A stretch of 64,000 nucleotides of DNA from Escherichia coli (lineage in GTDB: Bacteria > Pseudomonadota > Gammaproteobacteria > Enterobacterales > Enterobacteriaceae), in NCBI RefSeq assembly GCF_048403405.1, contig NZ_CP183129.1. One strand, written 5' to 3'. The notes beneath the pieces were generated by a model. That model searched no databases, was not told where the DNA came from, and saw only the letters and a program-made list of their open reading frames with translations. The stretch's first letter is position 1. Each line of letters starts with the position of its first letter. Position numbers and translations under genes: made by a program. Positions 654-5,433 of this stretch are shown here, piece by piece.

Positions 654-970
654 AAATTCTCCTGTAAAACGCGGAATATACCGTACCTCTTAGCGGGGAA
701 AAACAGGGTTATGCGGCAACGTCGAAATTAAATGTGATCTGCCACGCCTTTTATCACAAAAGTGTCTCCGGAAGTACGATGCAAATTTGCCTGGCAAAAT
801 AAGGATAATCAACATATTACGAATCGCTGCACACCTGTGCTGATGACTACTACGCAGAGAAACAAATGTGCAAGAGAAAGCGCTATTTCTCCCCATGCAA
901 AGAGTGAAAAATCGCTTTGAAAGGCCATCATGATGGGGTTATATCAGATCAAGCGGTGAGAAAGCGTATT

Positions 971-984
971 TGCACAAATGTGCA
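971..984. promoter_or_regulatory. Perfect 14-bp palindrome TGCACAAATGTGCA just upstream of the sorC start; candidate operator
   Basis: Palindrome read directly; ends 16 bp before the sorC ATG at 1001, with the AGGAGG RBS between them. Confidence 0.3.
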
Positions 985-1000
985 GAACCAGGAGGCGGCA

Positions 1001-1948
1001 ATGGAAAACAGTGACGATATCCGTTTGATTGTGAAGATTGCCCAACTCTATTACGAACAGGATATGACGCAGGCGCAAATCGCGCGCGAACTGGGTATTT
1101 ACCGCACCACCATCAGCCGCTTGCTTAAACGAGGCCGCGATCAGGGAATTGTCACCATCGCCATCAACTATGACTACAACGAAAATCTCTGGCTGGAGCA
1201 GCAACTGAAGCAAAAGTTTGGCCTGAAAGACGTTGTGGTGGTGTCGGGAAATGATGAGGATGAAGAGACTCAACTGGCGATGATGGGGTTACACGGCGCG
1301 CAACTGCTGGATCGCTTGCTGGAGCCTGGCGATATTGTCGGTTTTTCCTGGGGTCGCGCGGTGAGCGCACTGGTTGAAAACTTGCCGCAGGCGGGGCAAT
1401 CGCGGCAGTTAATCTGCGTACCAATTATTGGCGGACCGTCCGGTAAACTCGAAAGCCGCTATCACGTAAACACATTAACCTACAGCGCGGCAGCGAAGCT
1501 GAAAGGGGAATCGCATCTCGCAGATTTTCCGGCTCTGCTGGATAACCCCTTAATTCGTAATGGGATCATGCAGTCTCAGCACTTTAAAACCATCTCTGCC
1601 TACTGGGATAATCTGGATGTCGCCCTGGTGGGAATTGGCTCACCGGCCATTCGCGACGGCGCTAACTGGCATGCGTTTTATGGTGGTGAAGAGAGTGACG
1701 ACCTGAATGCCCGCCAGGTTGCTGGCGATATTTGCTCGCGCTTTTTTGATATTCACGGCGCAATGGTTGAAACGAATATGAGCGAAAAAACACTCTCTAT
1801 CGAAATGAATAAATTAAAGCAGGCGCGGTATTCCATTGGCATTGCCATGAGTGAAGAAAAATACAGCGGAATTGTTGGTGCACTGCGTGGAAAATATATT
1901 AATTGTCTGGTAACGAATAGCAGCACAGCTGAACTATTACTGAAATAA
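1001..1948 (+). CDS. sorC: SorC-family transcriptional regulator of the sorbose operon
   Basis: Track ORF 917-1948; likely true start is internal ATG at 1001 (MENSDDIRLIVKIAQLYYEQDMTQAQIARELGIYRTTISRLLKRGRDQGIV) preceded by AGGAGG. HTH N-terminus plus sugar-binding domain; first gene of a sorCDFBAME-like cluster. Confidence 0.8.
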   Translation: MENSDDIRLIVKIAQLYYEQDMTQAQIARELGIYRTTISRLLKRGRDQGIVTIAINYDYNENLWLEQQLKQKFGLKDVVVVSGNDEDEETQLAMMGLHGAQLLDRLLEPGDIVGFSWGRAVSALVENLPQAGQSRQLICVPIIGGPSGKLESRYHVNTLTYSAAAKLKGESHLADFPALLDNPLIRNGIMQSQHFKTISAYWDNLDVALVGIGSPAIRDGANWHAFYGGEESDDLNARQVAGDICSRFFDIHGAMVETNMSEKTLSIEMNKLKQARYSIGIAMSEEKYSGIVGALRGKYINCLVTNSSTAELLLK

Positions 1949-2833: not shown

Positions 2834-3241
2834 ATGGTCAATGCCATTTTTTGCGCCCACGGCAAATTAGCCTGCGCCATGCTGGAATCGGTTCAGATGG
2901 TGTACGGCGATGCCAGGGTCGAGGCAGTTGAATTTGTGCCCGGCGAGAACGCCGGAGACATTGTGGCAAAGCTGGAGAAGTTAGTGAGCATTCACAATCA
3001 TGGCGAGTGGCTAATTGCCGTGGATTTACAGTGCGGTAGCCCGTGGAATGCAGCAGCGACGCTTGCGATGCGCAATCCGCACCTGCGGGTGATCAGCGGC
3101 CTTTCCCTGCCACTGGCGCTCGAACTGGTTGATAACCAGGACAGCATGAATGTTGATGAACTGTGTGAACACCTGACGCAAATCGCAAAGCAAACCTGCG
3201 TTGTCTGGAAACAACTGGCAACAGCGGAGGAGGATTTCTGA
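2834..3241 (+). CDS. sorF: PTS mannose/sorbose-family EIIA component
   Basis: 135 aa, MVNAIFCAHGKLA...; EIIA-Man fold signature with conserved His; RBS AAGGAGG. Confidence 0.8.
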   Translation: MVNAIFCAHGKLACAMLESVQMVYGDARVEAVEFVPGENAGDIVAKLEKLVSIHNHGEWLIAVDLQCGSPWNAAATLAMRNPHLRVISGLSLPLALELVDNQDSMNVDELCEHLTQIAKQTCVVWKQLATAEEDF

Positions 3242-3735
3242 TGAACATTACGCTCGCCCGCATTGATGACCGCCTGATCCACGGTCAGGTCACTACCGTC
3301 TGGTCGAAAGTGGCTAACGCCCAGCGCATTATTATCTGCAATGACGAAGTTTATAACGATGAAGTTCGCCGGACATTATTGCGTCAGGCTGCGCCACCGG
3401 GAATGAAGGTTAACGTGGTCAATATTGAAAAAGCCGTCGCGGTTTATCACAACCCGCAATATCAGGACGAAACCGTTTTTTATCTTTTCACTCGCCCACA
3501 GGATGCCTTAGCGATGGTTCGCCAGGGGGTAAAAATAGACACCCTGAATATTGGCGGCATGGCCTGGCGGCCCGGTAAAAAACAGTTAACCAAAGCGGTT
3601 TCATTAGATGATGATGATATTAACGCATTTTATGAGTTAAATAATCTTGGCGTCATACTGGATTTACGCGTCGTAGCGTCAGATCCCTCAATCAATATTA
3701 TCGACAAAATAAACGAACAGTTAATCGCAAATTAA
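3241..3735 (+). CDS. sorB: PTS mannose/sorbose-family EIIB component
   Basis: 164 aa, MNITLARIDDRLIHGQV... (EIIB-Man motif with phosphorylatable His); start overlaps sorF stop (TGATG). Confidence 0.8.
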   Translation: MNITLARIDDRLIHGQVTTVWSKVANAQRIIICNDEVYNDEVRRTLLRQAAPPGMKVNVVNIEKAVAVYHNPQYQDETVFYLFTRPQDALAMVRQGVKIDTLNIGGMAWRPGKKQLTKAVSLDDDDINAFYELNNLGVILDLRVVASDPSINIIDKINEQLIAN

Positions 3736-3800
3736 ATAATAGCGCCTGTGTACATATGCTTTAACAGGCAGGGATGACGACACTTAAAAGGTGACAAATC

Positions 3801-4598
3801 ATGGAAATAAGTACCCTACAAATCATTGCTATATTTCTTTTTTCCTGTATTGCCGGAATGGGCAGCGTGCTGGATGAATTTCAGACTCATCGCCCGTTAA
3901 TTGCCTGTACGGTGATTGGTTTAATTCTCGGTGATTTAAAAACCGGAATAATACTCGGTGGTACGCTGGAATTGATAGCTCTCGGCTGGATGAACGTCGG
4001 CGCGGCGCAATCTCCAGATTCTGCACTCGCCAGCATAATCTCCGCCATTCTGGTTATCGTTGGTCAGCAAAGCATCGCCACCGGAATCGCCATCGCGTTG
4101 CCTGTGGCTGCGGCAGGCCAGGTGCTGACGGTGTTTGCCCGTACCATCACAGTAGTGTTCCAGCACGCGGCGGATAAAGCAGCAGAAGAGGCGCGGTTTC
4201 GCACTCTCGATATTCTGCATGTCTCCGCGCTTGGCGTGCAGGCGCTGCGCGTTGCTATTCCGGCACTGATTGTCTCGCTGTTCGTCAGCGCCGATATGGT
4301 CAGCAATATGTTAAACGCCATTCCCGAATTTGTGACCCGAGGACTACAGATTGCTGGCGGTTTTATCGTGGTGGTCGGTTACGCCATGGTGCTACGTATG
4401 ATGGGCGTGAAATATTTGATGCCTTTCTTTTTCCTCGGTTTCCTCGCAGGTGGCTACCTCGATCTCAGTCTGCTGGCGTTCGGTGGCGTCGGCGTGATCA
4501 TGGCCCTGCTCTACATCCAGCTAAATCCACAGTGGCGTAAAGCTGAACCTCAACTCCAGGCCACCGCCTCCACCGCCCTTGACCAACTTGACGATTAA
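3801..4598 (+). CDS. sorA: PTS mannose/sorbose-family EIIC membrane component
   Basis: 265 aa hydrophobic multi-pass protein, ManY-like. Confidence 0.8.
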   Translation: MEISTLQIIAIFLFSCIAGMGSVLDEFQTHRPLIACTVIGLILGDLKTGIILGGTLELIALGWMNVGAAQSPDSALASIISAILVIVGQQSIATGIAIALPVAAAGQVLTVFARTITVVFQHAADKAAEEARFRTLDILHVSALGVQALRVAIPALIVSLFVSADMVSNMLNAIPEFVTRGLQIAGGFIVVVGYAMVLRMMGVKYLMPFFFLGFLAGGYLDLSLLAFGGVGVIMALLYIQLNPQWRKAEPQLQATASTALDQLDD

Positions 4599-4608
4599 CG
4601 GAGCCATC

Positions 4609-5433
4609 ATGGAACAGAGAAAAATTACACGCAGCGATCTGGTGAGCATGTTTCTGCGCTCCAACCTGCAACAGGCGTCCTTTAACTTTGAACGTATTCA
4701 CGGGCTGGGTTTTTGCTACGACATGATCCCCGCCATCAAGCGACTTTACCCATTAAAAGAGGATCAGGTTGCGGCGCTCAGGCGACACCTGGTGTTCTTC
4801 AATACCACGCCAGCCGTATGTGGCCCGGTCATCGGCGTCACTGCCGCCATGGAAGAGGCGCGGGCCAACGGCGCGGAAATTGATGACGGTACCATTAACG
4901 GCATCAAAGTCGGTCTGATGGGACCATTGGCAGGAGTTGGCGATCCACTGGTCTGGGGAACGCTGCGCCCGATTACCGCCGCGCTCGGCGCATCTCTGGC
5001 ACTTTCGGGCAACATTCTCGGCCCGCTGCTGTTTTTCTTTATTTTCAATGCGGTGCGTCTGGCGATGAAGTGGTATGGCCTACAGCTCGGCTTTCGCAAA
5101 GGGGTGAATATCGTCAGCGATATGGGCGGGAATGTGCTGCAAAAACTCACCGAAGGCGCGTCGATTCTCGGACTGTTTGTGATGGGCGTGCTGGTGACCA
5201 AATGGACGTCAATCAACGTACCGTTGGTGGTTTCACAAACGCATGCCGCCGATGGCTCCACCGTCACCATGACCGTGCAGAACATTCTCGACCAACTTTG
5301 CCCTGGTTTGCTGGCGCTCGGTCTGACGCTACTGATGGTTCGTCTGCTCAACAAAAAAATTAACCCGGTATGGCTGATTTTCGCCCTGTTTGGCTTAGGG
5401 ATTATCGGCAATGCGCTGGGCTTCCTGTCCTGA
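4609..5433 (+). CDS. sorM: PTS mannose/sorbose-family EIID membrane component
   Basis: Track ORF 4579-5433; start taken at ATG 4609 (MEQRKITRSDLVSMFLRSNLQQASFNFERIHGLGF, ManZ-like N-terminus) with GGAG RBS. Confidence 0.75.
   Translation: MEQRKITRSDLVSMFLRSNLQQASFNFERIHGLGFCYDMIPAIKRLYPLKEDQVAALRRHLVFFNTTPAVCGPVIGVTAAMEEARANGAEIDDGTINGIKVGLMGPLAGVGDPLVWGTLRPITAALGASLALSGNILGPLLFFFIFNAVRLAMKWYGLQLGFRKGVNIVSDMGGNVLQKLTEGASILGLFVMGVLVTKWTSINVPLVVSQTHAADGSTVTMTVQNILDQLCPGLLALGLTLLMVRLLNKKINPVWLIFALFGLGIIGNALGFLS

Follow-up and report, generated by a model that had tools for sequence, protein, structure and literature searches.

A conserved inverted repeat upstream of sorC as the candidate core of a promoter-proximal SorC operator in enterobacteria

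How does SorC control the operon of which it is the first gene, and through which DNA sequence? SorC gave its name to a family that counts 8942 proteins in InterPro (PMC11229326), and operators in this family are defined in the searchable literature only for DeoR, CggR and LsrR; a 2010 paper gives family operators as known only for DeoR and CggR. SorC itself has been reported to act as an activator with sorbose and as a repressor without it (in a report citing Wohrl 1990), and the initial annotation of the DNA studied here likewise mentions a described dual role on its own operon. That annotation was made on a stretch of 64,000 nucleotides from a non-K-12 Escherichia coli strain (the window), and it singled out a dyad at positions 971-984, directly upstream of sorC, as a possible autoregulatory operator for which no defined SorC operator sequence was available for comparison. 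The searchable literature likewise turned up neither a description of a SorC operator nor any paper with the motif described below.

The genes 3' of sorC encode an SDR sorbitol-6-phosphate dehydrogenase, mannose-class PTS IIA, IIB, IIC and IID components and a zinc-type dehydrogenase, which is the classical sorCDFBAME arrangement. The sorC product is 87% identical to Klebsiella pneumoniae SorC (PDB 2W48), with further matches to DeoR (8R7Y, E = 4e-40), LsrR and Pfam PF04198. It has the N-terminal HTH and NagB-like sugar-phosphate-binding domain of a SorC/DeoR-subfamily regulator, and its closest solved relatives are Bacillus subtilis DeoR and E. coli LsrR. We take the ATG at 1001 as the real start of sorC because it follows a Shine-Dalgarno sequence, gives the N-terminus MENSDDIRL seen in PDB 2W48 and coincides with the RefSeq start. 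A mechanical list of open reading frames runs sorC from a TTG at 917 (917-1948), across the promoter and operator.

Of 5426 complete E. coli genomes, 2863 contain the whole rluF-sorC intergenic region. K-12-type genomes, which have no sor operon, match the window only at 640-688. As this homology ends at ~688, the sor island has its left edge about 35 bp ahead of the rluF start codon, and the whole control region (689-1000) is part of the island. A reading of the dyad as an island boundary or recombination site was rejected, since K-12-type homology is lost well to the left of the boxes.

Positions 971-984 read TGCACAAATGTGCA, with perfect 6-bp arms (TGCACA and TGTGCA) on either side of a 2-bp centre, AA, which is not self-complementary. 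The reverse complement, TGCACATTTGTGCA, agrees with the forward strand at 12 of 14 positions, and the element is therefore a 6-2-6 inverted repeat rather than the perfect 14-bp palindrome it had been called. Its end was correctly placed 16 bp ahead of the sorC ATG. Perfect 14-mer versions, with the centre TA, occur in Kluyvera, in Pseudocitrobacter vendiensis and in one metagenome-assembled genome. The geometry alone is not beyond chance, as the 22 dyads of the 6-2-6 form in the 64-kb window are close to the 16 +/- 4 found in shuffled sequence. This particular motif occurs twice in the 64 kb with up to one mismatch, against 0.23 occurrences expected. Both copies lie within one 160-bp stretch of the rluF-sorC intergenic region, 143 bp apart.

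A locus scan with one genome per species gave 77 loci, including 50 enterobacterial sorC loci with usable upstream sequence. Together with the window this made 51 loci, in which SorC identity ranged from 100% down to 56%, from about 15 genera (Escherichia, Pseudocitrobacter, Citrobacter, Klebsiella, Raoultella, Enterobacter, Mangrovibacter, Serratia, Pantoea, Erwinia, Cedecea, Entomohabitans, Kluyvera, Yersinia and Brenneria). The box that holds the dyad (O1), TTGCACAnnTGTGCA, was present just 5' of sorC in all 51 loci and was near-invariant. Both arms were perfect in 49 loci and one arm carried a one-base change in the other two; the remaining variation fell in the centre, with no compensatory changes in the arms. 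Mean pairwise identity over the 37 gap-free loci was 0.97 for positions 970-985, compared with 0.51 for the preceding 18 bp. With at most one mismatch allowed, the box was matched 80 times in the 21 kb preceding sorC and nowhere in the other 318 kb of the loci. Conservation in orthologous sor promoters, which had been proposed as the check on the operator reading, was thus borne out, and the pattern indicates that O1 is an element under strong selection.

The association also held where the downstream genes differ. In Kluyvera, the rluF-pepE interval (loci L033-L038, locus positions ~2870-4760) contains just two genes, a sorC-like one (70% identity) and, after it, one of the shikimate-dehydrogenase-like type (272 aa). 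This locus is without PTS genes, yet it has kept both O1 and the distal box O2 described below. Here O1 is the perfect palindrome TGCACATATGTGCA, and the second dyad lies 101 bp upstream of it.

Cross-genus conservation also led us to call a putative weak sigma-70 promoter upstream of O1, consisting of TTGAAA, a 17-bp spacer and TATATC (Table 1). Brenneria (TTGACA), Yersinia (TTGACT) and Kluyvera (TTGAAC) likewise have a hexamer at the -35 place, 17-18 bp ahead of TATAYC. A promoter and terminator consensus scan of 600-1100 called none; the scanner misses the sor promoter because the -10 element TATATC is without the usually critical final T. If transcription begins at the normal distance from the -10 element, it would start at about 952. 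This would put the O1 16-mer at ~+19 to +34 and its core dyad at ~+20 to +33. The gap between TATAYC and O1 was exactly 25 bp in 51 of 51 loci, whereas the distance from the start of O1 to the sorC start codon varied by locus from 24 to 34 bp, and AGGAG adjoins the right arm of O1 in most other genera. The position of the dyad is therefore locked to the -10 element. The initial annotation had described this position as typical of an autoregulatory operator; the operator part of that description is supported, but the anchor is the -10 element and not the start codon.

The operator reading needs a further amendment, as the dyad does not stand by itself; the region has three or more boxes of the SorC type, counting the dyad (Table 1). 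In the distal candidate box O2, the cores GCAC and GTGC have identities of 0.97-1.00 compared with 0.54 for the centre, and the centre and outer bases drift. The half-box F keeps its right arm and centre, CAAATGTGCAA (863-873; identity 0.94), and its left arm is degenerate. The spacing between O1 and O2 was 143 bp in the window and 36 further loci and 144 bp in Yersinia and in a single locus of Serratia. In Kluyvera it is 101 bp, exactly 42 bp or four helical turns shorter, and the centre of O2 would fall at ~-75.5. The spacer between O1 and O2 is only ~40-50% identical, yet it is without indels at 143-144 bp. At 10.5 bp per turn, 143 bp corresponds to a non-integral 13.6 turns. The upstream boxes (O2, F and Kluyvera O2) differ in position by 11, 31 and 42 bp, and would thus lie on the same face of the helix. 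An extra full dyad was observed in Yersinia (L040-L046), Brenneria (L048) and Entomohabitans (L031), at ~-305 relative to the sorC start and ~130 bp (127-137 bp) ahead of O2. It is perfect in Yersinia and Brenneria and missing from the Enterobacteriaceae loci with the 143-bp layout.

Two further conserved elements lie upstream of O2. The consensus for IHF binding is WATCAR-N4-TTR, and ATCAR begins exactly 20 bp before O2 in 43 of the 51 loci, including Yersinia and Brenneria; identity over this IHF-like site is 0.77, compared with 0.32 in the next spacer. A second upstream promoter (GATAAT, 804-809) was considered for this block and rejected, as the IHF consensus and the fixed 20-bp distance from O2 describe it better. 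In 44 of the 51 loci a TGTGA lies 95-96 bp ahead of O2, in a conserved alignment block. The centre of this CRP-like site is 94 bp upstream of the centre of O2, ~-211.5 from the inferred start. A position of ~-211 is unusually distant for direct activation by CRP. We also observed a 10-bp palindrome, GCAAATTTGC, at 781-790, which is kept as GCAAnTTTGC.

Table 1. Features of the rluF-sorC control region and sorC in the window; centres are relative to the inferred transcription start at 952.
Feature	Position	Strand	Remarks
CRP-like site AAATGTGATCTGCCACGCCTTT	730..751	.	Left half perfect, right half weak; binding protein inferred
Weak SorC-like dyad TATCACAAAAGTGTCT	752..767	.	11/16 positions as in the box; conserved block (A/T)CACAAAAGTG; function uncertain
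IHF-consensus-like site AATCAACATATTA (WATCAR-N4-TTR)	807..819	.	Putative accessory element; IHF binding inferred
O2, distal candidate SorC box CTGCACACCTGTGCTG	827..842	.	Dyad 828-841; 143 bp upstream of O1; centre ~-117.5
F, half-box AGAAACAAATGTGCAA	858..873	.	31 bp after O2, 112 bp before O1; centre ~-86.5
Putative -35 hexamer TTGAAA, sor promoter	917..922	+	17 bp from TATATC
Conserved block GGTTATATCAGATC with putative -10 TATATC (940-945)	937..950	+	Identity 0.97 across 37 loci
O1, promoter-proximal SorC box TTGCACAAATGTGCAG	970..985	.	Core dyad 971-984; putative SorC site; centre ~+26.5
Shine-Dalgarno AGGAGG of sorC	990..995	+	From sequence
sorC, SorC/DeoR-subfamily regulator, 315 aa, first gene of sorCDFBAME	1001..1948	+	From similarity and RefSeq CDS

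Several lines of comparison suggest that O1 is very probably a SorC operator. The box 16-mer, TTGCA-CAAATG-TGCAA, shares with the left half-operator of DeoR, TTGAA-CAAAAT-TTCAA, a geometry of two pentamers separated by 6 bp (TTGnA...TnCAA). This geometry is present both in the window, where 970-985 reads TTGCA-CAAATG-TGCAG, and in Yersinia (TTGCA-CAAATG-TGCAA). The DNA-binding domains of SorC and DeoR align over ~50 residues, and the base-contacting R34 and R39 of DeoR align with R35 and R40 of SorC, both of which are invariant in 13 SorC orthologs. Boxes of the TTGCACAnnTGTGCAA type also adjoin the gene in Firmicute SorC orthologs (Sporolactobacillus, Paenibacillus and Clostridium; 38-49% identity), with a perfect TTGCACATTTGTGCAA in Sporolactobacillus putidus, several related 16-mers between sorC and a divergent sorDFBAM in S. 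laevolacticus and S. spathodeae, and near-matches in Paenibacillus and Clostridium. Since the motif tracks sorC into both Firmicutes and Kluyvera, an unrelated factor is not expected to be its ligand. An operator at the sor promoter is automatically autoregulatory, given that sorC heads the operon.

The arrangement of the boxes differs between the two groups. Sporolactobacillus has tandem pairs of 16-mers in a 19-bp register between -270 and -30 from the sorC start (one pair each in L052 and L054, two in L055 and three in L056, with sorDFBAM divergent from sorC in the last two loci). Firmicute relatives of SorC thus keep compact tandem boxes, whereas the enterobacterial boxes are dispersed. 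Bacillus deoR-like loci were examined as a positive control for DeoR-type boxes and were uninformative, as the only match was intragenic. This match, the DeoR-type palindrome TTGAACAAAAGTTCAA, lies at +175/+193 inside the regulator gene in Bacillaceae deoR-like loci (L061, L063, L067, L072, L073 and L077). It occupies the same codon position in several genera, and could reflect coding constraint or an intragenic operator.

Our best explanation of these observations, to which we assign a probability of roughly 0.7, is that the dyad is the core of O1, a promoter-proximal SorC operator that would work together with the upstream boxes, probably by looping. SorC-family proteins are tetramers built as dimers of dimers, and their inducers act at the dimer-dimer contacts. 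In the K. pneumoniae SorC crystal the DNA-binding faces are ~70 Angstrom, or two helical turns, apart (in a source reporting de Sanctis 2009). This separation fits the 19-bp tandem boxes of Firmicutes but not the enterobacterial layout, in which O1 has no partner within 19-31 bp; the arrangement of two half-operators 19-22 bp apart under one tetramer was not found, as no conserved box lies at that distance from O1. A tetramer on O1 would therefore have a free DNA-binding face. Because O2 and F are kept at a strict distance from O1, without indels, this face probably engages one of them and loops out the promoter. Looping between O1 and O2 or F is an extrapolation within the family, as the known SorC-family operators are compact, with halves ~19-22 bp apart.

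In the uninduced state, a SorC tetramer, with its two DNA-binding faces, would be bound to O1 and bridged to O2 or F. The bridge would loop out the promoter and block initiation or escape, so that the whole operon, including sorC, is repressed; O1, at ~+20 to +33, would lie at the downstream edge of bound RNA polymerase. A protein bound at +19 to +34 would in any case hinder the polymerase, for which CggR, at +32 to +77 of an operon that begins with its own gene, offers a precedent, and we consider it fairly probable that O1 represses from just downstream of the start. A sorbose-derived inducer would then alter the dimer-dimer contacts so that O1 is let go, and the SorC left on the same-face pair O2 and F, 31 bp apart, would assist RNA polymerase at the weak promoter. 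The IHF-like and CRP-like sites would probably shape the SorC assembly. Release of O1 by inducer with retention of SorC on O2 and F would explain the reported dual role as repressor and activator. This loop-to-activator switch is a tentative proposal, which we hold at somewhat less than even odds. In its most extended form, the sor region would be the first SorC-family switch by long-range looping, with a solitary O1 bridged by the SorC tetramer to phase-locked O2 and F. Inducer would turn the protein from a loop-forming repressor into an upstream activator, much like AraC, on a rigid scaffold that also fixes the IHF-like and CRP-like sites, and the dispersed layout would be an enterobacterial innovation. 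We regard this combination as possible but doubtful.

Other readings of the dyad were weighed against the SorC operator. Inverted repeats of this form are common, with 22 in the window against ~16 expected, and one without function could have arisen here by chance. The comparative data already refute this, as the element is near-invariant and at a fixed position in 51 of 51 loci from ~15 genera whose flanks diverge, and the motif is clustered and specific to the region upstream of sorC; we regard the probability of a chance repeat as negligible. With a start near 952 the dyad would be transcribed, and a leader hairpin just upstream of the Shine-Dalgarno sequence might tune mRNA stability or translation. 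A fold is indeed predicted for the leader (7-bp stem, 4-nt loop, centroid -7.9 kcal/mol) that ends a few nucleotides before the Shine-Dalgarno sequence, but it is no better than those of shuffled sequences (z = -0.96; 35 of 200 shuffles fold equally well). The arms are conserved in sequence and without compensatory changes, with variation only in the centre, and the dyad is fixed relative to the -10 element and not to the Shine-Dalgarno sequence or start codon. The motif is moreover repeated 143 and 112 bp upstream, ahead of the promoter and outside the transcript. An Rfam scan of 600-1100 returned no family and one meaningless sub-threshold snoRNA match, and the dyad thus has neither the stable covarying fold nor the curated family match of a structured cis-regulatory leader RNA. 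A role at the RNA level is therefore very improbable.

It could also be that the boxes are bound by another regulator, global or sugar-specific, and that SorC acts elsewhere. The link between SorC and the box is drawn here from sequence comparison, and the conserved CRP-like and IHF-like elements suggest that several proteins act in the region. However, the motif occurs only upstream of sorC orthologs (80 matches against 0), it accompanies SorC into Firmicutes with other operon layouts and into Kluyvera with a different downstream gene, and the box parallels the solved DeoR operator with the contact arginines conserved, all of which makes such a regulator improbable. CRP sites are 22 bp long, TGTGA-N6-TCACA, with inward-facing half-sites. 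The TGCACA-N2-TGTGCA of O1 is wrong for this in both spacing and orientation, its TGTG half facing outward, and a CRP reading of O1 was rejected. A LacI/GalR-type operator was rejected on geometry, and a sigma-54 reading of the TTGCA in the dyad was rejected as no conserved TGGCAC is seen by eye 10-11 bp upstream. A simpler account keeps O1 as a SorC site, and makes it a single-site roadblock without a loop, with the upstream boxes serving activation only or having no role. O1 is the sole full-consensus box and would lie, much as the CggR operator does (+32 to +77), shortly after the transcription start, and binding of a tetramer to distant sites would be new for the SorC family. This account is a real but less likely alternative, given that O1 and O2 are held at 143-144 bp without indels across a spacer of ~40-50% identity, that the Kluyvera spacing differs by exactly 42 bp, that the tetramers of this family have two DNA-binding faces, and that isolated half-operators are not bound by DeoR in solution.

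The SorC operator reading can be set against the systems characterized in the same family. B. subtilis DeoR has a homologous HTH domain with the DNA-contacting arginines conserved, and its left half-operator, like O1, has 16 bp, in which two outer pentamers form an inverted repeat around six A/T-rich central bp. The whole DeoR operator joins a full palindrome to a downstream repeat of only its 3' half, an arrangement that the sor region shares. It is compact, with 39 bp in all (-60 to -21) and its halves 22 bp apart, in contrast to the dispersed sor boxes (31, 112 and 143 bp). The best sor box, unlike that of DeoR, is placed after the inferred start. At its fourth base the pentamer has C in sor and A in DeoR, and DeoR is known only as a repressor, whereas SorC is reported also to activate. 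CggR of the B. subtilis gapA operon resembles SorC in that its gene comes first in the operon under its control and its operator lies downstream of the start. It binds as a tetramer, a dimer of dimers, whose dimer-dimer contacts are weakened by inducer. It differs in its winged-helix DNA-binding domain and its CGGGAC-N6-TGTC direct repeats, and its compact 45-bp operator is without upstream sites or an activator role. E. coli LsrR, which acts at the lsr intergenic region, is the closest characterized E. coli paralog of SorC and is likewise a tetramer that regulates its own gene. Its boxes, by description, differ in sequence (AACAAT and AAGATTTAA as reported), and it is described only as a repressor.

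For the proposed mode of action the nearest textbook parallel is outside the family. AraC at araBAD both represses and activates, with repression through a loop between distant sites and activation from adjacent sites. The sor region would resemble it, in mode of action only, in its dual-acting regulator, its distant sites at spacings that may be in helical phase, adjacent upstream pair, weak promoter and CRP-like site. AraC belongs to an unrelated family and its looping partners both lie upstream of the promoter, whereas O1 lies downstream of the inferred start and the sor loop is a proposal.

The boxes thus offer a candidate operator of the SorC/DeoR type for the founding member of the family, in a dispersed layout that departs from the known compact operators. 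An explicit box, at least three sites with coordinates and a fixed geometry make the question of the dual role of SorC, which dates from 1990, experimentally tractable. The advance is incremental, solid and useful but unsurprising, as an operator is to be expected for a known autoregulated transcription factor. The sor operon is enriched in high-risk extraintestinal E. coli lineages (PMC12817954), and this gives its control elements some practical value.

Two minor observations concern the promoter region. On the minus strand, positions 937-950 read GATCTGATATAACC, and the counterpart in Yersinia and Brenneria is TGATATAAT. Read this way, the block makes a good extended -10 element directed to the left, which in E. 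coli is towards rluF, and it is possible that a promoter, divergent or antisense, lies here. The palindromes CCATCATGATGG (925-936, in the spacer between the -35 and -10 elements) and TTTGCCTGGCAAA (786-798) are poorly kept in other genera and appear to be specific to E. coli.
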